Notes under the pieces: model-generated | Told to the model about the DNA's origin: nothing | The model's input: only the letters and a program-made list of their open reading frames with translations | Databases searched by the model: none | Part shown: one piece after another, positions 1,511-32,671 of the stretch | Layout of the letters: each line of letters starts with the position of its first letter | Numbering within the stretch: the stretch's first letter is position 1 | Translations under genes and position numbers: made by a program | Source: Candidatus Iainarchaeum sp. | GTDB taxonomy: Archaea; Iainarchaeota; Iainarchaeia; Iainarchaeales; 0-14-0-20-34-12 | Direction: 5' to 3' | NCBI GenBank assembly: GCA_030649345.1 | Contig: JAUSKK010000016.1 | Span: forward strand, 4,541 to 68,540 | Length of the DNA stretch: 64,000 nucleotides

Positions 1511-4500
1511 GTGTTTTGGTTGCGTTTATTTTTTCTAGTTTGTCTTTTTCAGTTTTTTCTTTCCCCGGTCTTAGCGCAGACAGATTCGTTTTCTCAAACT
1601 GTTCCTTTAACTCAATACTTTGTTTTAGATTCAAATCAATCTATGCTGGCAATGCTTCCTGCAGTCAGCCAAGTAAGTCCATTGAATTCTGTTCAAGCAA
1701 TTCAATTTCAAGTTCCTATTTTTGTTGATTCCAATACTCAATTTTCGAAAGCAGTATTTTCTTTTTCTGAACTGCCGTTAAATCAAAAAACACCCACTGC
1801 ATTAATTTCTTTACTGCCGGAACAGCGTTCCAGTTTGTTTTTTTTAATTTTAGTGCTGGGATTAATTATTATTGTACTTTTCATTAAACCAGGTTCCAAG
1901 AAAAAAAATTTGTTTGCGTTTTTTCTGATTTTTTGTTTTTTGTTTTCATTGAATCTTACAGCTCAAGAATCTGTTTCTGAATTAACTCTTCCATTGCTTA
2001 AAACAGACCCTGAACTTGCATCTGTTTCCAATTCAGATTGGAGTATTCTTTTGTCCAATACTCAAACAACTAATTTTTCTTTTTCTTTTTCAAATACCAT
2101 TCCATCGAATTCAGTTATTGAAAATTTAAATTTGCATTTTTCTGCTCGTGCAGAAATTCAATCAGTCAATAATTCAGCTGAATCTGCTTCAAGTGAAATA
2201 GTTAATGCAGGTGAAAATTCAAATGAAATTGAAGATTTAACTGAAACCATTGTTGAAACTCCAAGTGATTCTTTAACATCCAGTGAAGAAATTGTGCCCA
2301 GCGAAGAAACCTTAGTTCCTGTTTCGGATTCAGTTAATGAACCTGCACTTCCTGCAGTTGAATCTGTAGATCCTGTTAGTGAACCTGTAGATTCTTCGAA
2401 TGAACCATTAACTTCTTCCGATGCAAATTCTCCTGAAACTATTTTAACCTCTTCTTCTGTTTCTGAACTTCAATCCAATTCGAATTCCGTAATTTTTTTT
2501 GCAGATGTTGATTCAGAATTTATTTCCGAAAATTTATCTGCAGAAAATGTTCCTTTAGCTTTTTTATCCATTGATTTTTGGAATGGCTCTGCATGGGTTC
2601 CTGTTTTAGATTGCCAAGATTTGAATATTTTTTCAACCATCCAAGATACTGTATGCGATCTTTCTTCTGTTATTCCAGTTCTTTCTTCCGAGCCCATTGT
2701 CTTAGGTTTTCGGGTAACTCCTTTACAGGAAAATGTTACTCTTTTTTTAACCAACACTGCTTTAAAATCTCTAATTTCTTCTTCAAATTCAGGAACAGCT
2801 CAAATTACGGTATATTATAAAACAACCGAAGGACTTCAGTCTTTGCCGGATTGTGTAAATCTTGATTTTTCTTTTAAAACTTTTTCTTGTGACTTTTCTT
2901 CTTTTTTTAAAAATTCTTCCGGCATTCAAAATTTAATTTTTGAAATCCATACTCAGCAAACTTCTGGTTCAGTTCAAGCTGGTTTAAATTCAGCCCAGCT
3001 TGATTTTTCGTATTCTTCTTTAAACCCGAATGCAGTTCATCTTGCAACTTTACTTTCAGACCGACAACCAGTGCTTGACTTTGATTCTGTTCTTATAACT
3101 GGTTCTGAGTTTACTTTGGATCAGAATGTTTTCAGTGTTTTTTCTATTGTAAATCCTGTTCTAAATTCTTTGCAAATCAAAAAATCTTCTTTGACTGCCG
3201 AACCTACTCAAATGTCCATTCAGTCTTTGCCTGTATCCATTCCTGCTCCAGAAGGCATAAAATGGCAGAATGTTTTTGCTGTCAATTTTGGAGATTCTAA
3301 TTTTTCCGAAGCTGTTTTTCAAATTAAAGATTCAAATGCTTTAATTTATTTTTGTTCTGAATTTAATTTTGAAAAAAATATATGTGCTTTAGACTGGATC
3401 AAACTTAACACTGGCAAGTCTGTGTTCATTCCTTCTCCAGGTGTTTTAGGATTCGGAATTCAGGATATTTCTTTTATTCATGGTTTTGTTTGCTTGAATT
3501 GCGATTCCAAGAATTCTTCAGCTAAAGATATTCAAGTTAATGTTAAAGTATTCAATGCCGGCAGTCAAACAGATGTAAATTTAACCAGTTTTTTTCCAGT
3601 TGCTTTGGAAGTAATTGATTCCAATCAAGGTTTGGTTTTAGATCATAATAGTGAATTCCGAAAAATTGTTTGGCAGAATCTTTCATTTGAAAATTCATTT
3701 ACTCAAAGTTATGTTCTGCGTGTTTCACCTAAAAACTCAAAAAAAGCATTCTTTTTTTCCATGCTTTCCAATTTGTCTTCGGATTATGTGCAAATGAATT
3801 TTTCGCTTTCTAGAAAAGAAAAACTTGTGCAAAAATTTGAAAAAAAATCAATGCATGAAATCCGCAAAGATATCCAGAAAGAATTCAAAACCATTGTCAA
3901 AAAACATGCGTTTGAATCCGATGAAGCTGTATTGCTGCCGTTTAAAAAATCTGAATTAGACACTGTTTTAAGTGCTCAAGACTTTTCAGAATTTACCAAT
4001 TCGGAATCTACCCATTTTTCAGAAAAAAGAATTGGCTCCAAAATTGTCCGGGCCGGCTTTTTCGGAGACACTTTGCTTCAGCCGGAAATTGTGGTTTCAG
4101 ATTCTGATCCCAATGAATTTATGCTTTTAGCCAAGCCAGAAACCAATGAATTTATTCCCGGAGAATACAAAGTATGGATTGCGGTTGAAGAAAATAATTC
4201 TGTTTCGTATGAAGAATATTCTTTTTCTTGGGGTTTAATTACTGTAAATTCATTTAAGCCTTTATATCATCCCAATGAAAAAGTAGAATTGTATTCAGTT
4301 GTTTTGGATTCAGCTGGTTTTCCTAGATCGGGAGCTCAAATTAAATTTACAGTTCAAACTCCTTCTTTGGTGTTGAATTTTTCTACAGTCGATGGAACGA
4401 TTGTGGAAACTTCTGTGAAAGGAGTCTATAAAGCAGAATTTTTAGCAGCTGAAATTGGAAATTATTTGGTTCAAGCTGAAACCAATATTGAAGGATCTCC

Positions 4501-6352
4501 CATTGTTTCGGAAAACAATTTTGGTGTCAGAGAATTTTTTGAATTTGATATTGTCCGCGAAATGCCTTTTACGATTGATCCCAGAAACGGGCCGTTTCAT
4601 ACCAAAATTACAATTACTCCCTTTATTGATAATTCAATTTCTTATCAAGTCAAAGAAGTTTTCTCTAAATCAATAACTCCTTCCAATACTTCTGCCAGTA
4701 TTTCTTCTACAGATACTTTGCAGTATTTGGATTGGCCGAGTGTTTCTGGTCCGCAAACTTTTGAGTATGATTTTGATGCTCCTTTCTTTTGGCCGCGTTT
4801 GTTTGAATTTGGAAAAATTCAAATACAATATGATTCGAATAAAACTTTTACAGAAGAACGTGCTTTTGATTTAGCTATTGATCCTACTGTATCAACTACT
4901 TGGTATATTGTAGATACGACAGACACTCAACAAGGTGTAGACATTAATGAACCTAAACCTGACAGACATACTAATTTTGCAAGCAAAGGAACACCTGCTC
5001 CTTCTTTATTGGCTTTTGGTTTAGCTAAAGGAAATGCAGTAGCTTCTAATGGTGTAAGAAAAGTTACTGGAGCTACAGCGACTGGTGACTATAATGCTTT
5101 AGTGGTTACTTCTCCTCCTTTGCGTGGTCAATTTATTAGTGGAACTTGGACTATGGATATCTGGGGGTTACAAAATAATGCTAGTGCTGATTTAACTCCG
5201 AATGCATATCTTCGGGTTTGGACAGCTGCCACGGATAGTGCAGGTGATGAAATTTGTGCCAAAACAGCTGATGGCGCTGAATGGGGTAATGCTTCATCTA
5301 ATCGTACTTTAATGACTTGGACTTGTTCTGGCAATCCAGTAACCTTTGCGAATAAAGATAAACTTGTATTGGAAATTGTCAGTGCTGGTTTAAGCCCTGG
5401 TTCGTCTAGCTCGTATGCAGACATTAATTACGGTAATACTTCCAGTGATTCAAGGATAACCAGTCCAGATACTTTACGTTTATATGCTGAATTAAAACAA
5501 CCTGTTATTTCGATTCCTTCGGCTGACAACAATTCTGGAACTGTTACAGGCGTGAATATGCGTGTGCAGGCAACTGTTGGTTGTACCAGTGTTTATTATG
5601 GTGATTGTGGTGATGTCAATGCCAGAATTCAGTTTTGTCAAACTGAAGGTTGTACTAATTTTGCGGACATGAATTTTACAGACGGTGGTTTACGTATTGT
5701 GGCAGGAGATCAAATTGTATATGAGCAAGATTTGGTTTCGGGTGAAACTTCTTCTGCATTTGCTTGGGAAATTCAAGGCTTTACTGCAGCAACCTATGAA
5801 TTGCGTTTGCGTACAGACGCTAATTTTACAGACACCAATACTTCTTCTGGAACAGATCGTACAATTACAATTAGTGCTCCGGGTGGAGCAGACTTAACTT
5901 TTGCTTTAGCGTATCCTGCTTCAGGCTGCACGAACGGAAAAGGTCGTACTTCTGCTGGAAATGGTGCTTGTGAAAAAGTTTATTTTGAAACCACTGATTT
6001 ATCTGGAAATGCGGATGAAAATCAAGTAATTCCAGAGGGCGGTAATCCATTTTTTGTATATGACAATCAAAGTACAAGCAGTTCAGATATTAATTTTACT
6101 TTAGACTTAAATGCTGCTTTGCCTTCCAGTTTATGGCTGAAAACTTCAACCATTTCTTCCGGTTATGCAGGTTCTTGCACCAGCAATCCAGACAACAATT
6201 GTGTTTCTATAACTACTGTGGCTCAAAATATTGGGAAAGCAATTTTTAGTACTGGTTCCCAAGATTTGAATGTATGGCTTTGGGCGGACTTTTTCCAGTC
6301 GAGTGTTCAAACCCAAGACCGAAATGCCACCAGTACTAGTGTGAGTTCGTAA
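1511..6352 (+). CDS. giant (1613 aa) secreted or surface protein, Ser/Phe/Asn-rich, with a higher-GC Gly/Thr/Asp-rich C-terminal domain
   Basis: Long uninterrupted ORF. N-terminal signal peptide (FLSPVLA|QT). A second signal-like or TM segment near residues 110-160. Composition shift after about nt 4900. Confidence 0.6.
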   Translation: MFWLRLFFLVCLFQFFLSPVLAQTDSFSQTVPLTQYFVLDSNQSMLAMLPAVSQVSPLNSVQAIQFQVPIFVDSNTQFSKAVFSFSELPLNQKTPTALISLLPEQRSSLFFLILVLGLIIIVLFIKPGSKKKNLFAFFLIFCFLFSLNLTAQESVSELTLPLLKTDPELASVSNSDWSILLSNTQTTNFSFSFSNTIPSNSVIENLNLHFSARAEIQSVNNSAESASSEIVNAGENSNEIEDLTETIVETPSDSLTSSEEIVPSEETLVPVSDSVNEPALPAVESVDPVSEPVDSSNEPLTSSDANSPETILTSSSVSELQSNSNSVIFFADVDSEFISENLSAENVPLAFLSIDFWNGSAWVPVLDCQDLNIFSTIQDTVCDLSSVIPVLSSEPIVLGFRVTPLQENVTLFLTNTALKSLISSSNSGTAQITVYYKTTEGLQSLPDCVNLDFSFKTFSCDFSSFFKNSSGIQNLIFEIHTQQTSGSVQAGLNSAQLDFSYSSLNPNAVHLATLLSDRQPVLDFDSVLITGSEFTLDQNVFSVFSIVNPVLNSLQIKKSSLTAEPTQMSIQSLPVSIPAPEGIKWQNVFAVNFGDSNFSEAVFQIKDSNALIYFCSEFNFEKNICALDWIKLNTGKSVFIPSPGVLGFGIQDISFIHGFVCLNCDSKNSSAKDIQVNVKVFNAGSQTDVNLTSFFPVALEVIDSNQGLVLDHNSEFRKIVWQNLSFENSFTQSYVLRVSPKNSKKAFFFSMLSNLSSDYVQMNFSLSRKEKLVQKFEKKSMHEIRKDIQKEFKTIVKKHAFESDEAVLLPFKKSELDTVLSAQDFSEFTNSESTHFSEKRIGSKIVRAGFFGDTLLQPEIVVSDSDPNEFMLLAKPETNEFIPGEYKVWIAVEENNSVSYEEYSFSWGLITVNSFKPLYHPNEKVELYSVVLDSAGFPRSGAQIKFTVQTPSLVLNFSTVDGTIVETSVKGVYKAEFLAAEIGNYLVQAETNIEGSPIVSENNFGVREFFEFDIVREMPFTIDPRNGPFHTKITITPFIDNSISYQVKEVFSKSITPSNTSASISSTDTLQYLDWPSVSGPQTFEYDFDAPFFWPRLFEFGKIQIQYDSNKTFTEERAFDLAIDPTVSTTWYIVDTTDTQQGVDINEPKPDRHTNFASKGTPAPSLLAFGLAKGNAVASNGVRKVTGATATGDYNALVVTSPPLRGQFISGTWTMDIWGLQNNASADLTPNAYLRVWTAATDSAGDEICAKTADGAEWGNASSNRTLMTWTCSGNPVTFANKDKLVLEIVSAGLSPGSSSSYADINYGNTSSDSRITSPDTLRLYAELKQPVISIPSADNNSGTVTGVNMRVQATVGCTSVYYGDCGDVNARIQFCQTEGCTNFADMNFTDGGLRIVAGDQIVYEQDLVSGETSSAFAWEIQGFTAATYELRLRTDANFTDTNTSSGTDRTITISAPGGADLTFALAYPASGCTNGKGRTSAGNGACEKVYFETTDLSGNADENQVIPEGGNPFFVYDNQSTSSSDINFTLDLNAALPSSLWLKTSTISSGYAGSCTSNPDNNCVSITTVAQNIGKAIFSTGSQDLNVWLWADFFQSSVQTQDRNATSTSVSS

Positions 6353-7748: not shown

Positions 7749-9392
7749 ATGCCAGCTACATTTGAATCTTTTACAGAACAAGAAAAACAAGTCTTGAAAC
7801 CATACTTTACTAATTTAGATCAATCTATTTTTGTTTTGCAAAATTTGCCGGAAGTCGTCAAAGGAGCTTTATTTTCCAGATATTCTAGGTCTTCTAAATT
7901 ATTGCGCAGACTGTTACTCGAAGAATTTTTGAATGTAAAAGAACTCGGCTTAACCGAACTGTTAAATCATCAAGCCAATACACAAGATCCTTTGGTGGCT
8001 GCCAAAAAAGCCGAAGAATTTTACGACCGAGTCTTGGTTGGCTTTGGAGATGACTCAGTTGCAGAATTGGCTGGCTGTCATATTGCCTGTGAACAAGTTT
8101 CCATGATTGCCACCAAAGCCTTAGAAGATTCACGGATTGGCTTGTGTCCTTTAGAGAAAAGTACACGGTATGTTTATTTTGATCAAAAAATAAATGGCCA
8201 CTATCAGTATTTGTTAGAAAAAGATTTAATGAATTCAGAATTTGCAGACTTATACACTGAAACTTGTGATTCTTTGTTTGATGTGTATGCCAAAATTTTA
8301 GAACCTATGAAAAAATATTTTACAGACTTATATCCTAAAGATGCTGAAACTTCTGATCGTGCTTACACTTCTGCTGTGAAAGCCAAAACCTGTGATACTA
8401 TTCGTGGTTTATTGCCAGCCAGTACTTTAACCAATTTAGGCTTGTATGGAAATGGCCGAGCGTTTGAATATTTATTGCAAAAAATGTATGCCAATCCTTT
8501 AAGTGAAATGCAGTCTTTGGCTTCAGAAATGCATTCCGAATTACGAAAGTATATTCCTTCGTTTGTCAAACGTGCCAATGATTCTTTAGGCCAAACCACC
8601 ATTGATTTCTGGCAGCAATCTTGGGCTGTTCAAAAAAAATATGCCGAAAAACAATTCAATCAAGTTCCTATGGAGTCAGTTCCTCAAGTTGAATTAATTG
8701 ACTTTGATTCCAAAGCGGAAGAAAAAGTGTTGACTGCTTTATTGTATTCCAAAACTGGTTTGTCCTTAAAACAAATTCGAAAACATATTCAAAAACTTTC
8801 AGTTTCTGAAAAACAGCAAATTTTTCAAGAATATTTAAATCATCGAAAAAACCGCAGACACAAGCCCGGAAGAGGATTTGAAACTGCGCAATATACTTTT
8901 GATATTCACGCCAACTTTAATGCTTTCCGTGACCTTCAAAGGCATAGAATGTTAACTCAAGAACGACAACTTCTTTCATGCAATTTAGGGCATATTACTC
9001 CCAAAGAATTATTCGATGCAGGCTTTGCTGAAGAGTATCAAAGTGTAATGAGTCAAGCCAAGGAATCGTTTGATGTTATTGCAAAAAAAATGCCAGCTCA
9101 AGCTCAATATATTGTTCCTATGGGGTATCATGTTCGCTGGTATATTTCTTTGAATGCCAGAGAAATGTATCATTTATGTGAACTGCGTTCAGTCCAGCAA
9201 GGTCATCCAGATTATCGCTATGTTGCGCAGCAAATGTTTTTGGAAGCTCAAAAAGTGCATCCTTTGTTAATGAATGCCATGAAATTTGTAGACATGAAAC
9301 AATATTCCTTTGAACGAATTGAAGCCGAAAAATATACCGATAAACGAATGGATGAAATTAAACAAAAGCATGGAATTGAATGGAAAGAATAG
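7749..9392 (+). CDS. thyX: FAD-dependent thymidylate synthase ThyX-like, apparent tandem-duplicated ThyX fold (547 aa)
   Basis: ThyX signature RHR-x(7-9)-S (QRHRMLTQERQLLS). Two ThyX-like LP-x-S/T...N-x-R blocks (IRGLLPASTLTNLGLYGNGRAFEYLLQKM and AQYIVPMGYHVRWYISLNAREMYHLCELR). Confidence 0.55.
   Translation: MPATFESFTEQEKQVLKPYFTNLDQSIFVLQNLPEVVKGALFSRYSRSSKLLRRLLLEEFLNVKELGLTELLNHQANTQDPLVAAKKAEEFYDRVLVGFGDDSVAELAGCHIACEQVSMIATKALEDSRIGLCPLEKSTRYVYFDQKINGHYQYLLEKDLMNSEFADLYTETCDSLFDVYAKILEPMKKYFTDLYPKDAETSDRAYTSAVKAKTCDTIRGLLPASTLTNLGLYGNGRAFEYLLQKMYANPLSEMQSLASEMHSELRKYIPSFVKRANDSLGQTTIDFWQQSWAVQKKYAEKQFNQVPMESVPQVELIDFDSKAEEKVLTALLYSKTGLSLKQIRKHIQKLSVSEKQQIFQEYLNHRKNRRHKPGRGFETAQYTFDIHANFNAFRDLQRHRMLTQERQLLSCNLGHITPKELFDAGFAEEYQSVMSQAKESFDVIAKKMPAQAQYIVPMGYHVRWYISLNAREMYHLCELRSVQQGHPDYRYVAQQMFLEAQKVHPLLMNAMKFVDMKQYSFERIEAEKYTDKRMDEIKQKHGIEWKE
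9355..9388. repeat. 34-bp direct repeat, copy 1 (3' end of thyX)
   Basis: aaattaaacaaaagcatggaattgaatggaaaga is identical to 9937..9970. Confidence 0.85.
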
Positions 9393-9443
9393 GTTACTTT
9401 CAATATGTGGGCGCAGATTTATTAAAAAGAATCAAACACTGTT

Positions 9444-9842
9444 ATGTGTATGATGAAATTTCTTTCTGTCGAAAAAATAATTGAATTAAACCTACTGGCG
9501 CTTAATTTAATTGCTGTTAAAAAAGCAGATCAAGCTAAAGTTTTAAGCAAAAGTAAGATTGCTGAAATCGTTGAAAGTTGCAAAACCTTAAATGGAGATG
9601 TCTATGATCATGCTGTTTTTTTACTTAAGCAAATTGTACAAAAGCATGCGTTTGCAAGTGGAAATCGCCGTACTGCTTTTTTGGTTATGAAATATTTTTT
9701 GGTTTTAAATAAACAAAAGCTTAGAATTTCAGACAATCCTGAAAATGCACGAGTCATGCAGGGAATTCGGGAAAATTATTATTCAGACAATGAATTGAAG
9801 GAGTGGATTAAAAATGGAAAAATTAGAAACTTCCAGCGATAA
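9444..9842 (+). CDS. Doc/Fic-family toxin (death-on-curing-like)
   Basis: Fic/Doc core motif H-x-F-x-x-G-N-x-R-T-A (HAFASGNRRTAF). N-terminus resembles the Doc ISPEELIALHDANI region (LSVEKIIELNLLAL). Confidence 0.65.
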   Translation: MCMMKFLSVEKIIELNLLALNLIAVKKADQAKVLSKSKIAEIVESCKTLNGDVYDHAVFLLKQIVQKHAFASGNRRTAFLVMKYFLVLNKQKLRISDNPENARVMQGIRENYYSDNELKEWIKNGKIRNFQR

Positions 9843-9933
9843 ACTAAAATATGAAATTGTTTTAGAAGAACTTGCAGAATTTAAAAAATTGGTTCAAGGG
9901 CATAAAAAATTACTTATTGCAATAGGTGAACTT
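9814..9933 (+). CDS. 39-aa small ORF overlapping the 3' end of the Doc gene (possible cognate antitoxin or accessory)
   Basis: ATG at 9814. Translates to MEKLETSSDKLKYEIVLEELAEFKKLVQGHKKLLIAIGEL. No family recognised. Confidence 0.2.
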
Positions 9934-9936
9934 TAA

Positions 9937-9970
9937 AAATTAAACAAAAGCATGGAATTGAATGGAAAGA
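9937..9970. repeat. 34-bp direct repeat, copy 2
   Basis: Identical to 9355..9388. Followed by a TAA codon, so it could terminate a ThyX C-terminus in a pre-insertion arrangement. Confidence 0.85.
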
Positions 9971-9977
9971 GTAATTT

Positions 9978-10244
9978 ATGCCGGAATCTTTAGAACAACG
10001 TGTGACTCGAATTGAAGAAAGAAATTCAAAAGTAGAAACTGACAAAAGCTGGGAGACTAGCTGGTTTCGCAGAATTTTAATTGCAGTAGTTACCTATATT
10101 TTGATTGCTTGGCTGTTTCTAACTCTTCAAGTTCCCAATTCTTTTGAAAATGCCTTAATTGGAACGATTGCTTTTTTGATTTCTACTCTTTCCCTTCCTT
10201 TTATTAAACAGTTCTGGATTCAACACTTTTACAAGAAAAAATAA
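9978..10244 (+). CDS. small membrane protein (2 predicted TM helices)
   Basis: ORF track. Hydrophobic segments ILIAVVTYILIAWLFL and LIGTIAFLISTLSL. Confidence 0.4.
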   Translation: MPESLEQRVTRIEERNSKVETDKSWETSWFRRILIAVVTYILIAWLFLTLQVPNSFENALIGTIAFLISTLSLPFIKQFWIQHFYKKK

Positions 10245-10709: not shown

Positions 10710-11744
10710 TTGATTCATATGCTTTCTCCTATTCCGTTTTCTTTTGAATCCAAATTTGACTCCATTTTAAAGACCCATTTAGTTTCAAAAATTTCAGAGT
10801 CTCTTTCAGCATATGAAAATCCTTCTTTTTTAGCAGGTTTTATTTGGCCGAAAGATTTTTCAAAAGAACAAATTTTGGATTTAAAAGCAAATTTTCAGCA
10901 AAATTTAACCAGCGAACTTTCAAAAGCACTGCATTCAATTCCAGACTTTCAAAATCCAGTAACTTCCATTTACATTGATTTTACTTTAAATCAAATTACG
11001 TTTCACATCCAACCTGTCTACATTTTTGGACATTATAAAAAATTTTCTCGTACAATTACACAGACCTTTCCGTATTGTTTTCATTGCAAAGGACAATCCT
11101 GTCGTTTGTGCAATTTTACCGGCCGAGAACCCTGTGAAAGCGTGCAAGAAATCATTGCAGAACCAGCTCAAAACTTATTTCAATCGAATGATAATAAATT
11201 TCATGGAGCCGGAAGAGAAGACCAAGATGTCCGCATGCTGGGCAATGGCAGAGCTTTTGTTTTAGAATTAATCGATCCCCAAAAACGTTCCATGGATTTA
11301 TCTAAATTGGAACAAGAAATAAATTCGAAAAATCAAAACAAAGTTGAAGTTATTCGCTTGCAGTATTGTTTGAAAGCAAAAATTGCTGAAATCAAAGAAG
11401 CCAAATTCAGCAAAATTTATTTAGCGGAAGTTACAGGCGTAAAACCTTTTGTAAAAGAAAAATTGCTGAGTTTAAAAAATCAAACTTTTGAATTAAACCA
11501 AGCTACACCGCAAAGAGTACAGTATCGTAGAGCTGAATTGATTCGCAAAAAAAGAATTAAAGTTTTAGACATTGTGCCTAAAACAGACTGTGTATTTGAA
11601 ATCAAACTGGAAGCTGAAGCTGGAGCGTATATTAAAGAATTTATTTCCTCAGATCAAAATAGAACCAAACCCAGTTTAGCTGAATTATTAAACAATGTAT
11701 GCGACTGTACTGCATTGGATGTTCTAGAAATTATCGAAAATTAG
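10710..11744 (+). CDS. pus10: tRNA pseudouridine(54/55) synthase Pus10
   Basis: Pus10 catalytic block FHGAGREDQDVRMLGNGRAFVLEL. Zinc-binding CxxC pairs (CFHCKGQSCRLCNF). Confidence 0.7.
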   Translation: MIHMLSPIPFSFESKFDSILKTHLVSKISESLSAYENPSFLAGFIWPKDFSKEQILDLKANFQQNLTSELSKALHSIPDFQNPVTSIYIDFTLNQITFHIQPVYIFGHYKKFSRTITQTFPYCFHCKGQSCRLCNFTGREPCESVQEIIAEPAQNLFQSNDNKFHGAGREDQDVRMLGNGRAFVLELIDPQKRSMDLSKLEQEINSKNQNKVEVIRLQYCLKAKIAEIKEAKFSKIYLAEVTGVKPFVKEKLLSLKNQTFELNQATPQRVQYRRAELIRKKRIKVLDIVPKTDCVFEIKLEAEAGAYIKEFISSDQNRTKPSLAELLNNVCDCTALDVLEIIEN

Positions 11745-12808
11745 ATTTTTCTTTGCACACTATATTCTGCCAAAGCCTTCAATTTTTGTTTGGCTTTACT
11801 TTCTTTTAATTCTTTATCCACTTTCTTCCAGCTTCCCAGTACAATTTCTTCCGCTTTTCCTTTAGCATACTCAATGGCATCTGTTTTTTGAATCAAGTCA
11901 ATGCCTCTTTTAATTTCATTCGGAAAACGTGTATGTGAATTCAATATTTCAATTAATTCTTTTCGTTCTTTTTCATTTAATTTTTTTAAAGCCCTTAAAA
12001 CCAGCAAAGTTCGTTTGCCTTCCGTGATATCTTCTCCGATTGTTTTTCCCCATTCTCCGCTTTCAGGAACTAAATTTAAGATATCATCCTGTATCTGAAA
12101 TCCCACGCCTATACTTTGAGCAAATTCTCCTAAAGCATTAATTTGTTTTTTGGTTCCATTACCTAAAATTCCCCCAATCATAGCACTCATTCTTGCAAGC
12201 ACTCCAGTTTTACACAAACACATTTGCAAGTAATGCTCTTCGCTTAAATTTGTCTTTTTTCCTTTATGCCAATGAATGTCCATGGCTTGGCCTAAGCTTA
12301 CGCGGAGCATTTCTTCTACAAATACATTGTATATTTGTACTTGTTGTTTTTCGCTTAATTTTTTTAAATTCCGATACACTGGAATCATAGGCAAAAAATA
12401 CAAAGTATTCGAATCATTAATGGCTGTATCCATTCCAAACAATTTATGCAATGCAGGTTTTCCTCTTCTTACCTCTGAACCATCTTCAATGTCATCGGCA
12501 ACCAGAGTTCCATTGTGCACCATTTCCGGAATAGGTGTAAACGGCAAAGCTTTTTTTTCAGTTCCACCCACCGCTGTACAGCACCAAATCATTAAAGCTG
12601 GCCGCCATCTTTTTCCGCCGCGATTTAATAAATCCCAAATCGGTTTGCTGACTTCTTCAGTAATGGTTTCCGAGTGATATTTGTAAACAGGTTTCCCTAA
12701 AGCAGTATTCAACCAAGCATTCGAAATTTTTTTAGGCAAAATTTTTTGCATTTCTTGATCTATTTTTGGTTTGAGTTTTTTCAATTCGTGTTTAATATCT
12801 ACACTCAT
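11741..12808 (-). CDS. polyprenyl (isoprenyl) diphosphate synthase family, paralog 1
   Basis: First Asp-rich motif DDIEDGSEVRRGKPA. GGKRWRP. Second motif reads QIQDDILN (DDxxN rather than the usual DDxxD). Confidence 0.7.
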   Translation of the reverse strand: MSVDIKHELKKLKPKIDQEMQKILPKKISNAWLNTALGKPVYKYHSETITEEVSKPIWDLLNRGGKRWRPALMIWCCTAVGGTEKKALPFTPIPEMVHNGTLVADDIEDGSEVRRGKPALHKLFGMDTAINDSNTLYFLPMIPVYRNLKKLSEKQQVQIYNVFVEEMLRVSLGQAMDIHWHKGKKTNLSEEHYLQMCLCKTGVLARMSAMIGGILGNGTKKQINALGEFAQSIGVGFQIQDDILNLVPESGEWGKTIGEDITEGKRTLLVLRALKKLNEKERKELIEILNSHTRFPNEIKRGIDLIQKTDAIEYAKGKAEEIVLGSWKKVDKELKESKAKQKLKALAEYSVQRKI

Positions 12809-12866
12809 AAAAAGTATACGTATTCTCTGAACTTTTTATACTTGTGCTTTCTACAAAATATTAACT

Positions 12867-12995
12867 GTTATCCAATGCAATAGGTAGAAATCAATAATTC
12901 TTTTTGTTTGTTCAATACCTTGTCCAAGGTATTGAATGTTATCCAATGCAATAGGTAGAAATCAATAATTCTTTTTGTTTGTTCAATACCTTGTC
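12867..12995. repeat. tandem direct repeat of 58 bp, 2 copies, period 71 bp, each containing an 11-bp-arm inverted repeat
   Basis: gttatccaatgcaataggtagaaatcaataattctttttgtttgttcaataccttgtc at 12867-12924 and 12938-12995. Palindrome ttcaatacctt-gtcc-aaggtattgaa at 12911-12936. Confidence 0.85.
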
Positions 12996-14092
12996 TATAC
13001 TTTTCGTTGAACCACAAATTCTGCCAAAGCTTTCAGTTTTTGCTTGAATACACTTTCCGCAAGCTGGTTTTCTACATTTCTCCAGCTTTCAATTACAATA
13101 TCTTCTGCTCGCTTTAAAGAATATTCTACTGCTCCTGTTTTTTTAATAATTTCAATGGCTCGAATAATTTCAAATTCATTTCTTGTATGGCTTTTTAGAA
13201 TTTGAATTAATTCTTCTTTTTCTTTGGCTGGAGCTAATTGGAGTGCACGTAAAACTAAAATAGTTCTTTTGCCTTCCGTAATGTCATCCCCGACTGCTTT
13301 GCCCCATTCTTGGCTGGCTGGAAATAAATTTAAGATATCGTCTTGAATCTGAAAGCCTACACCAATGCTTTCAGCAAACTTTCCCAAAACATTTATTTGT
13401 TCTAGACTTCCATTTCCTAAAATGACTCCAATTTTGGCACTCATTCTAGCTAAAACACCGGTCTTGTAAGCGCACATTTGTAAATAATGTTCTTCGGTTA
13501 AATCGTATCTTTTATGATTATGCCAATGAATATCCATGGCTTGACCCATGCTGGCTCGAAACATTTCTTCTCCAATAACTTCAAATAAAGCCAGTCTTTT
13601 TTCTGCACTTAAATGCCCCATATTTCTATAAAGTAAAACTTGCGGCAAAAAATACAAAGCTCCAGAATTATTTACTGCAGTATCCAAGCCATACAATACA
13701 TGAATGGCAGGCTTTCCTCTTCGAACCTCAGATTTGTCTTCTACATCGTCTGCAATTAAAGTTCCAGTATGAATCAATTCAGGCAAAGGAGTAAACATTA
13801 AAGCATCTTCTATTTTTCCTTGAACCGAACCACAAGACCATAACATTAAAGCTGGCCGCCATCGTTTTCCGCCGCGGTCTAAAAAATCCCAAACTGGAAC
13901 AGCAAATTCTTCTTGCAAGGTCTGAATATCGTATTTGTAGGCTGCAGGCCCTAAAGTTAATTTCATCCAGTCTTCAGTAATTTGTCTGGGAATAATTCGT
14001 TCCATTTCCCGATTAATCCAAGGTTTAATGGCTTCCAATTCGTGTTTAATATTAATTGATTGCAGGACTGTTTTTTCCATAGGCTCACCCAA
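12995..14092 (-). CDS. polyprenyl (isoprenyl) diphosphate synthase family, paralog 2
   Basis: DDVEDKSEVRRGKPA and QIQDDILN. About 55% identity to paralog 1 by eye. Confidence 0.7.
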   Translation of the reverse strand: MGEPMEKTVLQSINIKHELEAIKPWINREMERIIPRQITEDWMKLTLGPAAYKYDIQTLQEEFAVPVWDFLDRGGKRWRPALMLWSCGSVQGKIEDALMFTPLPELIHTGTLIADDVEDKSEVRRGKPAIHVLYGLDTAVNNSGALYFLPQVLLYRNMGHLSAEKRLALFEVIGEEMFRASMGQAMDIHWHNHKRYDLTEEHYLQMCAYKTGVLARMSAKIGVILGNGSLEQINVLGKFAESIGVGFQIQDDILNLFPASQEWGKAVGDDITEGKRTILVLRALQLAPAKEKEELIQILKSHTRNEFEIIRAIEIIKKTGAVEYSLKRAEDIVIESWRNVENQLAESVFKQKLKALAEFVVQRKV

Positions 14093-14717: not shown

Positions 14718-17690
14718 TTAATTCTTTTTCAATTGGTTTTCAATTTCTTGCTCTAATAATTTCAAAAATTTGTCTTGCTGGTCTATTGGAACCCTGCAGC
14801 CCGCTGCTGGACGATGTCCTCCACCTTCAGCTCCTTCAATTTGTGCACAGCAAGTCTTCAAAAGTGTTCCTAAATTTAATCCAGCCCGAACCAAATCATC
14901 ACTTGCGCGAGCACTAATCTTCAAATTCCCATCCGGATATTTAGAAATCGCAATAATGGGTTTATTATGTTCCAGTATTCCAGAGCCATACAGCATTCCT
15001 GCCACAATTCCAATAATGGAATCTTTAATTTTTCCTTTGGAATCAAAATAATAATAATTTTTTCTTTTCTCCACTCCTTGTTCTGTAACCAATCTAAGTC
15101 CTTCACTGAGTTCTCTTCGATGATTGGCAAGCAAACGCAAAGCTTCATCGTAAGCATTCGAACGATTTCCTAAACACACTTGCAAAGCAATATCTTCATT
15201 TTCATGGCGTGCACAATTATGAACTACTATTCCATTTGCAATATAGTTGTGTGTTTCATCTACTGTAAAATCATAAACTTCGCTTATTCCATTCACTTCT
15301 TTTATCTCTTCAATTTTTTCCCAAGTTAAATCTGATTCCAAATGTGAATAAATTATTTTTATAAGATTGGATGCATGACCTAATTTAGTTATCACGACTT
15401 TAATGCCATTACCCAGCTTTTTTTGGGCATTCGCTCCAGGCTTTTTTCCTTCAATAATCCGGTAAGTCCATTCTTCTGATAATTCACAATATTGACTAAA
15501 TTGCCTTGTGCTTATTTTGGCATTTTCTAAAAATTCAGGTAACTTTTTGTTTTGCAAAAATTTATCCACGGCAGCAATTTTTTTTTGTAGCTGTACTTCA
15601 AAATAGTCTATGAACTTAACTGCGTGCTGTCTTGTTGGATTAACTGCGCTTTTTTTATAATACGTAAAAATACTGCTGATTTCATTTGGTATTCCAAGCA
15701 AATCTTTCAATTCCAATAACTCATTTTTAATTTGTGGCATTATTTCATAATTCGAATTATCCAATTGTGTGTTTTTTATGAACTTTCTTATTTTTAATTG
15801 GTAATGGCTATTTTTCATTATAGGTTCTAATTTTTTAAAATTTTCAATTCCAGTTATAAACAACCTATATTTATTGCCTGTACAATCTTTGCATGGTTTG
15901 TTTGTGACTGTGCTGTTTATTGAAAATTTTAATAGGATATTTTGAAAATCGTTCATTATCTCTTTGCTGTGACTTGCGTAGGTTATGCTTCTGCCGGACA
16001 TTGAACCATCGCTTTCTAATAACCCGCGAATACACGCAGCAGCGTTCTTCTTGTTTAGAAACGGTATTATTTTTTTAAGAGTGATCTGTGTGTCTTTTTT
16101 CCCTTTAGGAACTCCTAACCTGTTGAAAACTTCAACCAGTGTTTTTCCATTTATGTAAGCACTAAAATAGGTCGGCCGGCGGTCATAGGATAATTTGCTT
16201 ATTCCAAACAAACTTTTTATTATGTGTTTATGTTTTTTGAATATTCGTCTGCCTTTCAGAGTATTGGGGTAAATTAATCCTATATTGTGTGTGTCTAAAT
16301 GTCCGTCTCCTAAAATAAACCCATACAACTCAAAGAAATTCGAATTTAGTTCAGTGTTTTTTATGTAATTTATGCATCGCTTAAATCTGAATCTATTTCC
16401 ATTCGAGCTCCATTGTATTTCATCTTGCTTAAAAAAATCTTTTGCATACGTTTTTTTAATTTCTATATCCGGAATGCTCCGCAGCGTGGCAACATAATCA
16501 CCAGTACGTAACTTTTCTAGTTCGTGCCAGCCAAATGTGTGATTGTAGGATAAAATTTCATGATTTTGTGTAGCAATAAGTGTTTTTTTTCTATTTGTTT
16601 TTAACTCCAGTAATTTAATTCCTGGCGGCACTGCAATTTTATGTCTTTTTTCAATCTGACTTTTGCTGTATTTCAAACTTTTTTGGTTAAGACTCAGCAG
16701 TTTCTCTTTGTCAAAATTTTGTATTGGGATGTTTGTCCCATTTGAATCCAAAATGAGTGTATCTGCTGTCACACAGGCATTTAGAATGGTTCCATATTCT
16801 TTAGCATCCTTTAATGGACTACCCCAACTTTCTTTTGTTAAAGTATACACTTCTCCAATTAAGGATTGAATTTTCCATTCCGGAACATTGACTTGATGCA
16901 AATACAAAATCAAAGCAGTCGTAAATTTTTGTTTATCGTCCAAACTTAATTCTTCATAACTTGGCCAACGATTATCTTGTTTTATTTTAATTCCATTTTC
17001 ATGCAAAAAAGAAACGCAAGCTCCTTCATTTCCAGTTAAACCTGGCAACATCGGAGAACTGGCAAACATTAAAAATTGAACCAAAGGCCGTGAAATTCTT
17101 CCATACAAACGTAAATCAATTTTTTTTTCTAACACACCTGCGCTAATTCCATCTTCTAAAATTTCCCGATTCAAACCAATCACTTTTCCAGAGCTATCCT
17201 GCACATCTCCACAAGCTCCCACAATTCCTAAATCGGCTAAATCTTTATTTTTTTCATTTAACATTCTGGCAAAAAAATAAGCTGAACCACTAGCACTCAA
17301 TTCATAACTTCCACTAAATCCAAATGTGTTTGCATTGAAGTGATTTTCATGATCACTTGTAACCTGATGATGATCTAAAACAAAGAAATTTTTTCCAAAT
17401 TCTTTTTCTAAAGGAATTAAATAACTAGAGCCTAAATCCACAAAAATAATGTTTTCAAAACCCAATTCTGCTTGTTTTGCTTTCAGTTCTAAAACAATTT
17501 CTGCATACAATTGCTTCAAAATTCTAGTGCCTAAAACTTTTTTGTTTTCCCGTTGCAAAGCTTTAATCACAATTGCAGTTGACGTACATCCGTCAGCGTC
17601 ATGATTTCCAACAATAAAAAAATTATCCAAATTCCTTATTTTTCCAACAATTTGTGTCAATCGTTCTTCGAATGCTTTTTGGTCTCCCAT
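14718..17690 (-). CDS. archaeal RecJ/Cdc45-like DHH-family nuclease (GAN-like), interrupted by an in-frame intein
   Basis: DHH motifs (IVGNHDADGC and FVLDHHQV). DHHA1 GGGH motif (GAEGGGHRPAAG). Extein is about 470 aa after removal of the 520-aa intein. Confidence 0.7.
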   Translation of the reverse strand: MGDQKAFEERLTQIVGKIRNLDNFFIVGNHDADGCTSTAIVIKALQRENKKVLGTRILKQLYAEIVLELKAKQAELGFENIIFVDLGSSYLIPLEKEFGKNFFVLDHHQVTSDHENHFNANTFGFSGSYELSASGSAYFFARMLNEKNKDLADLGIVGACGDVQDSSGKVIGLNREILEDGISAGVLEKKIDLRLYGRISRPLVQFLMFASSPMLPGLTGNEGACVSFLHENGIKIKQDNRWPSYEELSLDDKQKFTTALILYLHQVNVPEWKIQSLIGEVYTLTKESWGSPLKDAKEYGTILNACVTADTLILDSNGTNIPIQNFDKEKLLSLNQKSLKYSKSQIEKRHKIAVPPGIKLLELKTNRKKTLIATQNHEILSYNHTFGWHELEKLRTGDYVATLRSIPDIEIKKTYAKDFFKQDEIQWSSNGNRFRFKRCINYIKNTELNSNFFELYGFILGDGHLDTHNIGLIYPNTLKGRRIFKKHKHIIKSLFGISKLSYDRRPTYFSAYINGKTLVEVFNRLGVPKGKKDTQITLKKIIPFLNKKNAAACIRGLLESDGSMSGRSITYASHSKEIMNDFQNILLKFSINSTVTNKPCKDCTGNKYRLFITGIENFKKLEPIMKNSHYQLKIRKFIKNTQLDNSNYEIMPQIKNELLELKDLLGIPNEISSIFTYYKKSAVNPTRQHAVKFIDYFEVQLQKKIAAVDKFLQNKKLPEFLENAKISTRQFSQYCELSEEWTYRIIEGKKPGANAQKKLGNGIKVVITKLGHASNLIKIIYSHLESDLTWEKIEEIKEVNGISEVYDFTVDETHNYIANGIVVHNCARHENEDIALQVCLGNRSNAYDEALRLLANHRRELSEGLRLVTEQGVEKRKNYYYFDSKGKIKDSIIGIVAGMLYGSGILEHNKPIIAISKYPDGNLKISARASDDLVRAGLNLGTLLKTCCAQIEGAEGGGHRPAAGCRVPIDQQDKFLKLLEQEIENQLKKN
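15216..16775 (-). mobile_element. intein with LAGLIDADG homing-endonuclease domain, residues 306-825 of the DHH nuclease
   Basis: N-splice Cys (NA|CVTADTLILD). Two LAGLIDADG-like blocks (LYGFILGDGHL and LLESDGSMS). C-splice VVHN|C. Confidence 0.7.
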
Positions 17691-31336: not shown

Positions 31337-32671
31337 TTAAATTTCAATCTTTTCTTTCAGTGCTGGAACAAATGCTTGTACTTTTGCTTTTTTTTCTAAT
31401 TCTTTTTGTAATTCCAGTCCTTTGCTTTCTTCTCCGTGTACCAAAAATACTTGTTTGGGTTTGATTTTATTCACAAACTCCAGCAGTCCTTTGTAATCCG
31501 AGTGTCCTGAAAACTTAACTTGTTTCACACAGCAATTGACTTCTATTTTTTTTCCATTTTTTAATTCAATTTCTTTTTCTCCATCCAATAGTTGTCTTCC
31601 AATGGTTCCATGTACTTGGTATCCTGCAATTACAATGCAATGTCTTTGTTCGGGTGCCATGTGTTCAAAATATTTAACGCTGGGCCCGGCGCTTAACATT
31701 CCGCTAGTTGCTAAAATTACGGATTGGGGTGTTTCAACTACATCTTTTTTATGAAATGTTTTCGGTTTTTTAATAACTTTGTCTTTGAATGGATCGTCAT
31801 CCGCTGTTAAAATTCTGTTCGGAATTTCTTTTTTCAGCCAAATTACATTATGTCTGCAAATTCGATTGGCTCTAGTAATCATTCCATCTACAAACAAATT
31901 TAATTCAGGCAAATATTTTGAACGTACATAATTGGTGACTGCAAACATAATTTCTTGTCCTCTTCCGACAGCAAAAGCTGGGACCAAAACATTTCCGTTT
32001 CGTGCAAAAGTTTCTTTAATAATATCCGCCAATTCTTTACTGGCCTTTTGCAAACTAGGCAAAGAATCTTGTTTTCCTCCATACGTGCTTTCCATAATCA
32101 AAGCATCTATTGTTTGATTCGGAATTTCGGCTCCATCCAATAAGTGCGTTTCTCGTATATTGAAGTCTCCAGTGTACAATAACTTTTTTCCATTGTTTTC
32201 CACTAAAATCATACAGCTTCCTGGAATATGTCCTGCATTAAAAAACTCAATGAAAATTTTTGGAAAAACCTCAATTCTTTCCCGATACTCTAACAAACTA
32301 ACTTGTTCTAAGGTTTGTTCAATTCCTTGATTGGAGTAACAGTCTGCTTCTTGTTCTTTTGCAATCTTTAAAGCATCGCTTAACAATAAATGCATTAAAT
32401 CTCTCGTAGGCTTAGTGCAATAAATTTTTCCAGTAAAACCAGCTTCAACCAAAAACGGAATATATCCTGAATGATCTAAATGTGCATGGCTTACAATAAT
32501 GCAGTCCATATTTTTTGCTTTCTTGATAATTCCAACTGGAAATCGTTGTTCAGGCAATTGCGAGCCTAAATTAATTCCGCAATCCAATAAAATATTTTTT
32601 CCATTTGCTTCCAGCAAAAAACAACTTCTTCCCACTTCTCGGACAGCACCTAAAAAAGAAATCTTCATCAA
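31337..32671 (-). CDS. beta-CASP metallo-beta-lactamase family ribonuclease (aCPSF2/RNase J-like)
   Basis: HxHxDH motif (SHAHLDHSG). About 440 aa. C-terminal beta-CASP-type His (FSGHSD...LVHGE). Confidence 0.7.
   Translation of the reverse strand: MMKISFLGAVREVGRSCFLLEANGKNILLDCGINLGSQLPEQRFPVGIIKKAKNMDCIIVSHAHLDHSGYIPFLVEAGFTGKIYCTKPTRDLMHLLLSDALKIAKEQEADCYSNQGIEQTLEQVSLLEYRERIEVFPKIFIEFFNAGHIPGSCMILVENNGKKLLYTGDFNIRETHLLDGAEIPNQTIDALIMESTYGGKQDSLPSLQKASKELADIIKETFARNGNVLVPAFAVGRGQEIMFAVTNYVRSKYLPELNLFVDGMITRANRICRHNVIWLKKEIPNRILTADDDPFKDKVIKKPKTFHKKDVVETPQSVILATSGMLSAGPSVKYFEHMAPEQRHCIVIAGYQVHGTIGRQLLDGEKEIELKNGKKIEVNCCVKQVKFSGHSDYKGLLEFVNKIKPKQVFLVHGEESKGLELQKELEKKAKVQAFVPALKEKIEI

Follow-up and report, generated by a model that had tools for sequence, protein, structure and literature searches.

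The window analysed here is a 64,000-nt (64-kb) stretch of contig JAUSKK010000016.1 from a Candidatus Iainarchaeum sp. genome. Within it, a gene for a toxin of the death-on-curing (Doc) family and a small overlapping open reading frame (ORF) lie directly behind thyX, the gene for FAD-dependent thymidylate synthase, and are bracketed by two direct copies of the thyX 3' end. The insert measures 548 bp and doc and the small ORF are its only genes. The features of the locus are collected in Table 1.

Table 1. Features at the thyX locus, in window coordinates.
Feature	Position	Strand	Remarks
thyX, FAD-dependent thymidylate synthase	7749..9392	+	547 aa, double Thy1 domain; the final 38 nt, stop included, make up repeat copy 1
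Repeat copy 1	9355..9396	+	34 nt perfect (9355-9388) plus 8-nt diverged edge; ThyX tail IKQKHGIEWKE, then TAG
Cassette leader	9393..9449	+	57 nt; TATA-like box TTTATTAAAAA at about 9417-9427, 23-33 nt 5' of ATG 9450
doc, death-on-curing family toxin	9450..9842	+	130 aa as called by NCBI; alternative ATG 9444 gives 132 aa; active-site loop HAFASGNRRTAF
Small ORF, conserved partner and candidate antitoxin	9814..9936	+	40 aa, MEKLETSSDKLKYEIVLEELAEFKKLVQGHKKLLIAIGEL; 29-nt overlap with the doc 3' end in another frame
Repeat copy 2	9937..9978	+	34 nt perfect plus GAG TAA TTTA; first base follows the small-ORF stop; reaches the start of the next gene
Downstream host gene	9978..10244	+	88-aa predicted membrane protein; ATG 3 nt past the relic TAA (ORF list)

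The repeated 34-mer, AAATTAAACAAAAGCATGGAATTGAATGGAAAGA, was found exactly twice in the window, at 9355-9388 and 9937-9970 on the + strand with no mismatches, and none of 100 dinucleotide-preserving shuffles contained any 34-mer match. The ungapped similarity of the two copies reaches 42 nt at 93% (9355-9396 against 9937-9978), and a scan of the whole window showed the thyX pair to be the sole repeat of its kind around a small insert. Both copies encode IKQKHGIEWKE followed by a stop codon; since their spacing is 582 nt (3 x 194), copy 2 lies in the same frame as copy 1. Copy 1 is the in-frame end of thyX and completes the gene. Beyond the perfect block copy 1 reads GAA TAG G and copy 2 reads GAG TAA T, and these codon differences (GAA/GAG, TAG/TAA) are synonymous. 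An earlier note on this DNA had claimed a perfect 34-bp duplication of the thyX terminus, a cassette placed at the end of a housekeeping gene, and that either copy would terminate ThyX properly; each of these statements was borne out by the exact match search, the shuffles and the reading frames.

The ThyX protein matched Pfam Thy1 in two stretches (E=2.4e-41) and NCBI names the identical protein FAD-dependent thymidylate synthase of Candidatus Diapherotrites, a DPANN archaeon. Homologs of ThyX end in ...EAEKKIDKKMEEIxKKYG, so the duplicated tail is native ThyX sequence. Copy 2 would then be the relic of the native thyX tail, with the copy 1 edge GAA TAG G having probably come with the cassette. 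The ATG of the downstream gene is only 3 nt beyond the relic TAA, thus copy 2 keeps the native upstream context of that gene. The 88-aa product of the latter gave no significant match in Pfam or NCBIfam.

The leader of the cassette contains a promoter. Comparison of 74 homologous loci gave a TATA consensus, TTTATAAA, located 25-32 nt upstream of the Doc ATG, and conservation of the leader was seen to fade beyond about -40. No terminal inverted repeats were found at the cassette ends in an inverted-repeat scan of the window and the family comparison revealed no conserved sequence past the promoter and coding regions. At the loci where repeats lie close to the genes, the leader occupies 40-65 nt before the ATG (the promoter alone) and 0-23 nt follow the small-ORF stop. 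The marks of a transposon or insertion sequence, namely inverted repeats, a transposase and a short duplication of fixed length, were not found, the repeats ranging from 15 to 119 nt. Neither the cassette nor the 30 largest window ORFs include an integrase or transposase.

Doc and its small partner

The toxin was examined using profile searches and structure prediction. Doc scored 32.4 bits against Pfam PF02661 (Fic/DOC; gathering cutoff 24, E=1.7e-7) and 45.5 bits against NCBIfam TIGR01550 DOC_P1 (cutoff 38.65), with positions 32-121 of the 122 in the latter profile covered. An AlphaFold2 (AF2) model built with 36 homologs had a predicted local distance difference test score (pLDDT) of 90.6 and six helices. 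The five best PDB chains for this model were all P1 Doc (3K33, 3KH2, 3DD7), with template modelling (TM) scores of 0.70-0.77 over 122 columns. By Pfam, NCBIfam and fold the window protein is therefore a true Doc. This bears out the Doc/Fic assignment made in the earlier note, which had proposed a hidden Markov model (HMM) search of the toxin ORF as a check; the search gave matches above the curated cutoffs. PADLOC gave only weak Fic-domain matches to Doc, short of significance at E=1e-4. Toxin activity of the protein is expected by its likeness to P1 Doc. A total of 379 Doc homologs of about 130 aa were found, mostly in DPANN lineages, and among 2.9 million viral contigs only one carried such a homolog.

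The active-site loop is unusual. In the alignment of the family it reads H[AP]FASGNRRTAF (window site 9630-9670) and is invariant. The canonical Doc catalytic loop is HxFx(D/N)(A/G)NKR. The His, Phe, Gly, Asn and second Arg of this motif are kept in the family of the window protein, while Ser replaces Asp/Asn and Arg replaces Lys. Judging from these substitutions, the catalytic chemistry or the substrate of the DPANN Doc proteins may differ from that of P1 Doc.

P1 Doc phosphorylates a translation elongation factor. At sibling loci from one well-sampled groundwater population (L099-L108, e.g. L099 2688-3499; L numbers denote surveyed loci) a Doc cassette was found 52 nt 3' of the gene for aEF-1beta, with no flanking repeat. 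The elongation-factor target of P1 Doc makes this proximity curious, but it is probably a coincidence.

The small ORF, whose stop codon directly abuts repeat copy 2, had been reported as 39 aa in the earlier note; its actual length is 40 aa (9814-9936). Partners were surveyed at 87 loci with Doc homologs, made up of 80 species representatives and the contexts of close relatives. An ORF of about 40 aa with the same frame-shifted overlap of the Doc 3' end was present in nearly all of them, giving the consensus M.KS.NS.D....KIV.EEL..FNKLI.GH.KLL.AIG.L followed by the stop. Pairwise differences between partners in the non-overlapping part were distributed over the three codon positions as 0.37/0.17/0.63, a pattern indicating that the small ORF is coding sequence. 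The predicted structure is a single long helix comprising residues 7-39, with a pLDDT of 91. The small ORF matched nothing in Pfam, NCBIfam, PADLOC or PDB, hence the search against antitoxin families suggested in the earlier note yielded no known family. An exhaustive search of 1.84 billion representatives returned nothing but stand-alone proteins of about 40 aa, save for one match inside a 5,137-aa protein that was taken as spurious. As judged by sequence comparison, the partner is an unannotated 40-aa protein family and the obligate partner of this archaeal Doc lineage.

Since the partner is conserved and coding, the small ORF is not incidental and is likely to be the antitoxin. The pairing of a toxin with an adjacent co-transcribed small gene, as in type II toxin-antitoxin systems, recurs at nearly all of the 87 loci, and the small ORF is probably a downstream antitoxin with the gene order reversed. 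The earlier note was right that there is no upstream Phd-like antitoxin: the 57-nt leader holds the promoter alone, and neither a 34-aa ORF at 9380-9484 nor the 40-aa ORF had a significant match in Pfam, NCBIfam or PDB, so that no Phd/YefM relative was found upstream. The same note spoke of an addiction or abortive-infection module. The locus does hold a discrete Fic/Doc toxin module, but nothing specifically supports abortive infection. A 33-nt likeness at 73% links thyX (9327-9359) with the beginning of the small ORF (9826-9858); a common origin was entertained for the two but rejected because the N-terminus of the small ORF is conserved family-wide, independently of thyX.

Flanking repeats across the family

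Repeats around other Doc cassettes were sought locus by locus: the 250-400 nt preceding Doc were compared with the sequence that follows the small ORF. Exact flanking direct repeats of 89, 88, 79, 51, 36, 34 (the window), 30, 27, 26 and 23 nt, and shorter ones, were found, and the repeated sequence was different in every genome. Pseudo-cassettes shifted elsewhere within the same loci served as controls. Exact repeats of at least 19 nt flanked 16% of cassettes and 1% of controls, and those of at least 25 nt flanked 8.7% of cassettes and none of 1359 controls. When local alignment with mismatches allowed was used, the 99th percentile of the controls was exceeded by 14 of the 70 non-redundant cassettes and the 95th by about 20 of them, with repeats of up to 119 nt. 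The window is thus one instance of a family-wide footprint of host-derived repeats. The GC content of the cassettes follows that of their hosts (r=0.80, n=76, range 0.27-0.59), which fits exchange among relatives. At the uS7 locus L075 the arrangement was found to be identical over 744 nt in three further independent assemblies, which argues against an artefact of assembly.

The repeats are related to the ends of host genes. At seven loci, the window among them, the upstream copy has its cassette-side end no more than 4 nt from the stop codon of a co-directional host gene; at L075 this end lies 12 nt before the stop. The duplicated tails belong to uS7, a NusA-like KH protein, ABCE1/RLI, PdxT, a signal-peptide peptidase and ThyX, as well as to two genes without a housekeeping assignment. 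At L023 the repeat begins in the last 16 nt of a tRNA-Glu gene, and the L089 repeat is formed by the tail of a convergent gene lying downstream. The upstream neighbours of the cassettes were co-directional in 35 cases and divergent in 16 (p=0.01), showing that the cassettes favour the 3' side of co-directional genes. An argument from the conserved S7-EF-2 operon at L075 and L030 was dropped because the downstream genes at both loci are convergent.

The differences between the two copies of each repeat indicate how the repeats arose. A dead duplicate decaying in place is expected to acquire largely non-synonymous differences. The nine coding repeats contained 22 synonymous and nine non-synonymous codon differences, and all nine of the latter were conservative. 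The expected synonymous fraction is 23% under neutrality and 38% if one copy is constrained; the observed bias gave p=2e-8 against neutrality and p=2e-4 against decay in place with one constrained copy. The differences often lie at the repeat edges around an identical interior, while at L076, L089 and L074 they are spread along the repeat. At L075, 88 identical nt are followed by AGT AGT CGA TAA in one copy and TCT AGC AGG TAG in the other, both encoding the universally conserved uS7 end SSR-stop. At L030, 89 identical nt are followed by five differences in the last nine codons (DVEGMRVV-stop against DVEGMRVM-stop). The GAA TAG and GAG TAA of the window fit the pattern of these siblings. The synonymous bias indicates that both tails evolved as coding tails and that the cassette-side tail is not a decaying duplicate. 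From the codon differences it would appear that the cassette-side tail either came, together with the cassette, from another functional copy of the gene or that both tails have been used in turn during excision and re-integration. With either history, integration would depend on homology with the host gene tail and not on a site borne by the cassette.

The closest ThyX among 5.8 billion proteins is only 57% identical, and for this reason no empty site was found for the window. A scan of genome contigs using the C-terminal half of ThyX found no relative, the 34-mer was not found in the metagenome contig collection, and exact look-ups of the window Doc returned no second contig. At the sibling uS7 locus (L075), all six contigs with an identical uS7 gene were filled. 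The thyX genes of three relatives are followed by unrelated genes at -8 to +37 nt and never by Doc. These three loci were considered as strict empty sites and rejected, the downstream genes differing in each.

Relatives carry other small toxin-antitoxin pairs one gene 3' of thyX, a ParE-like toxin with an 82-aa partner at L119 (6681-7177) and a PIN protein with a 71-aa partner at L123 (5664-6249). The thyX neighbourhood may be a recurrent landing zone for toxin-antitoxin modules.

A different arrangement was observed on Joint Genome Institute (JGI) metagenome contigs L002-L007 (e.g. L003 1-3057), which contain arrays of small toxin-antitoxin cassettes (PIN, ParE, Doc, Fic and others). The cassettes are separated by a shared motif of 17-26 nt, ...CGCCTCCCGGATCTGCA, with a sharp right boundary and a left extent that varies. 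An identical Doc cassette has three different neighbours in these arrays and is joined to them always right after ...CGCCTCCCGGATCTGCA, indicating shuffling at the level of the cassette at repeat boundaries. The arrays may represent an archaeal cassette array resembling a cluster of attC sites lacking an integron integrase (CALIN-like) or repeated insertion at one site. Hairpin folding of the L003 motifs was weak and inconsistent. Ten single matches to the L003 array motif in metagenomes lay on unrelated contigs and were set aside as probably due to chance.

Origin of the insertion

On balance it is considered probable, with room for doubt, that 9393-9936 is a compact selfish toxin-partner cassette, without a recombinase gene of its own, that was inserted by homology-dependent recombination with a long target duplication. 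The cassette would have arrived on DNA that also bore a thyX tail, and host homologous recombination inside the 34-nt identical block would have integrated it. The incoming DNA could have been a small circle, integrating by a Campbell-type single crossover, or a linear fragment, joined by homology at one end and illegitimately at the other. The thyX gene would now finish with the imported GAA TAG, the original GAG TAA being left as a relic after the cassette. Such an imported tail, with the relic 5' of the next gene, leaves both host genes intact in a genome that has almost no intergenic space. The toxin-partner pair would make loss of the cassette costly, by analogy with addiction to P1 Phd-Doc. 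An empty allele would be expected to read from the thyX body into GAGTAATTTATGCCGG, and an excised circle would read ...GGTGAACTTTAA-AAATTAAAC...GAATAGGTTAC with a period of 582 bp. We infer the route of recombination, the donor and the activities of toxin and antitoxin from the comparisons described above. The earlier note had left the choice between site-specific and homology-mediated capture: the synonymous test favours capture mediated by homology, whereas site-specific capture is weakly supported, as no integrase was found in the cassette or in the 30 largest window ORFs, and no conserved att core or attC-type hairpin was found either.

Several points weigh against this interpretation. 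Just 3 nt differ between the window copies, too few for the window by itself to tell an imported tail from chance. About 70-80% of the homologous cassettes are without a detectable flanking repeat, hence the long duplication is either not obligatory or decays. Neither an empty site nor a free circular form was seen for the window or any sibling locus. Were diverged tails to recombine by a plain Campbell event, the copies should differ over the full length of the repeat and share no identical core; the core that is seen would call for gene conversion, repeated cycles of excision and integration, or a crossover at the block's edge. The mechanism also leaves unexplained the first landing of a cassette exactly after a stop codon. 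The active-site loop of Doc departs from the canonical one in having Ser for Asp/Asn and Arg for Lys, and that the small-ORF product neutralises Doc is something we infer.

A bolder extension of homology-dependent insertion is possible but doubtful. The Doc cassettes may constitute an unrecognised minimal class of mobile element in DPANN, homing to the 3' tails of essential, conserved genes via a recoded tail and using host recombination only, with the partner as a new antitoxin family. By alternating between an integrated and an excised form, the cassettes would maintain coding selection on both tails and homogenise the core of the repeat.

The strongest alternative is a site-specific integrase acting in trans. 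The cassette would then be a non-autonomous element resembling a cis-mobilisable element (CIME-like), with the repeats as attL and attR, the tyrosine integrase of a virus or plasmid targeting the thyX 3' end, and the att sequence of the element replacing the gene tail. Integration at the 3' ends of housekeeping genes and at a tRNA gene (L023) is typical of integrases, and an identical core next to a synonymously diverged tail is the icd/icdC geometry found around e14 (PMC13626634). However, neither the cassette nor the 30 largest window ORFs supply an integrase, no sequence common to the cassettes could serve as the att core, and with repeats of 15-119 nt in a different gene for each lineage every lineage would need its own integrase specificity. 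The single Doc homolog on a viral contig also argues against a viral carrier, and the explanation is regarded as unlikely. Less likely again is that the cassette is the last remnant of a larger virus or plasmid that entered thyX site-specifically and was deleted down to its addictive module. Toxin-antitoxin modules resist deletion and at L038, L033, L089 and L074 there are 100-330 nt extra between cassette and repeat. Against this, in the window and at about ten independent loci the repeats sit close against the cassette, 40-65 nt ahead of the ATG and 0-23 nt past the stop, and independent decay would be unlikely to reach the same minimal unit every time.

A simple target-site duplication, in which a staggered break was filled in at insertion and few mutations followed, would explain the direct repeats of host sequence, since these are the classic footprint around an insert, and would fall into the class described for restriction-modification units as 'insertion with long target duplication' (PMC2853133). 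It is slightly less credible even than a deleted remnant, given the synonymous bias (p=2e-4 against decay in place), the recodings of several nucleotides at once (Ser AGT/TCT and Arg CGA/AGG), the lack of inverted repeats and transposase, and repeat lengths varying from 15 to 119 nt. An integron-type gene cassette at a secondary site, with attC-like repeats, is brought to mind by the closest homologs (L002-L007), which occur in arrays shuffled at the shared 17-26-nt motif, and by the documented DPANN cassette arrays rich in toxin-antitoxin genes (PMC9668308), to which the L003 arrays may be related. The repeats of the window are coding sequence, though, and as single-stranded DNA they fold with a minimum free energy (MFE) of -0.1 to -0.6 kcal/mol on either strand, no better than shuffles; no R' or R'' core motifs were seen by eye and no integron integrase was found, making an integron origin very improbable. 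The last explanation is an assembly artefact, with a free 582-bp circle or a strain variant threaded through the shared 34-mer. The source is a metagenome-assembled genome sampled once, and a 34-nt repeat lies below the resolving power of many assembly k-mers at low k. The same architecture, with repeats as long as 119 nt, appears in at least 14 independent assemblies of other genomes, and four independent assemblies made at k127/k141 are identical at L075 over 744 nt, so that an artefact can scarcely be entertained.

Genomic setting and relation to known systems

The cassette lies in ordinary chromosomal housekeeping DNA. The neighbouring genes of the window encode Pus10, polyprenyl synthases, GAPDH, PGK, a proteasome subunit, FttA, a Hel308-type helicase and an intein-containing RecJ/GAN-like protein, and the Rfam and tRNA scans found no Rfam family and no tRNA in the window. 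The RecJ/GAN-like protein (14718-17690, - strand) is a 990-aa DHH-DHHA1 phosphoesterase split by an intein that carries a LAGLIDADG homing-endonuclease domain (Pfam Intein_splicing 85.8 bits, LAGLIDADG_3 52.4 bits), a second selfish element in the window. Two paralogous polyprenyl synthetase genes lie in tandem on the - strand (11741-12808 and 12995-14092) and share 300 nt at 75% identity; in the spacer between them a 71-nt unit occurs twice at 92% (tandem repeat 12849-12990), and the pair looks like a tandem gene duplication that included the upstream region. Two beta-CASP/metallo-beta-lactamase RNase paralogs on the - strand (31337-32671 and 50292-52184) share stretches of 60-90 nt at 71-75% identity, one having 630 aa and the FttA KH domain and the other being shorter at 444 aa. 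Two long ORFs on the + strand, 1511-6352 (1613 aa) and 42694-46503 (1269 aa), had no Pfam match at E<=0.001 and their products may be DPANN surface or host-interaction proteins.

The module itself resembles Phd-Doc of phage P1 in that the curated Doc thresholds are passed, the fold superposes, and two overlapping genes form a small co-transcribed module. It differs in that the toxin comes first, the partner is a single helix of 40 aa without similarity to Phd/YefM, the loop is HxFASGNRR and the hosts are DPANN archaea. The manner of insertion has its closest description in the 'insertion with long target duplication' of restriction-modification units (Nobusato/Furuta/Kobayashi; PMC2853133), a class reported from bacteria only, with no archaeal case passing the screen and the mechanism unknown. 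That screen asked for inserts below 20 kb without other mobility genes; the present insert is 548 bp and no such gene was found in it or among the 30 largest window ORFs. It also asked for a regionally unique repeat of more than 30 bp, and the repeat here, 34 nt perfect or 42 nt at 93%, occurs only twice in the 64 kb. Both cases involve an addiction-type unit without mobility genes and long, variable, host-derived repeats that often cover the 3' end of a neighbouring gene. The present case is distinguished by a toxin-partner pair, archaeal hosts, repeats ending at stop codons and the evidence from synonymous bias.

A further parallel is the insertion of e14 or phage 21 into icd of E. coli, where a tail borne by the element completes the gene and the icdC relic remains (PMC13626634; Hill et al. 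1989 cited therein). Here too the 3' end of a housekeeping gene is involved, the native tail is displaced as a relic, and the tails differ mainly by synonymous or conservative changes. The restoration of the target gene by a 3' end borne on the element, expected of a site-specific element, was thus observed, but no cognate integrase was found in the cassette or among the 30 largest window ORFs. Furthermore, e14 is a 15-kb prophage with an integrase and a short core, whereas the cassette is 548 bp without a recombinase gene, its family has identical blocks of 34-108 nt with a short diverged part, and the gene involved changes from one lineage to the next.

Homology-facilitated illegitimate recombination, proposed for effector-immunity modules of type VI secretion (T6SS) and for Rhs arrays (PMC5361080), also adds modules beside the conserved end of an upstream gene and displaces 3' remnants without a dedicated recombinase. 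It has been demonstrated solely in naturally transformable bacteria, and in the present case the relic is a short gene tail, not orphan immunity genes. Integron cassettes, such as phd-doc of the Vibrio superintegrons and those of the archaeal arrays (PMC9668308), are likewise minimal units of a promoter and a gene, and the L002-L007 arrays have a shared repeat; in contrast, the window has no attC-like hairpin, core sites or IntI, and its repeats are a host coding tail. A full-text literature search found no account of the cassette family, the 40-aa partner or the gene-tail duplications in DPANN.

With these results 'insertion with long target duplication' reaches beyond bacterial restriction-modification units, into archaea and toxin-antitoxin modules. 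A widespread two-gene cassette with a reproducible footprint is found repeatedly behind core genes (ThyX, uS7, NusA-KH, ABCE1, PdxT and tRNA-Glu) without a mobility gene, and the synonymous differences between the copies provide a clue to mechanism in suggesting that one copy is a functional tail of separate ancestry. The genomes of DPANN archaea are tiny and streamlined. If confirmed, the cassettes would serve as natural markers for gene flow by recombination among DPANN populations, and as a model of the way in which selfish modules enter genomes that have next to no space between genes.

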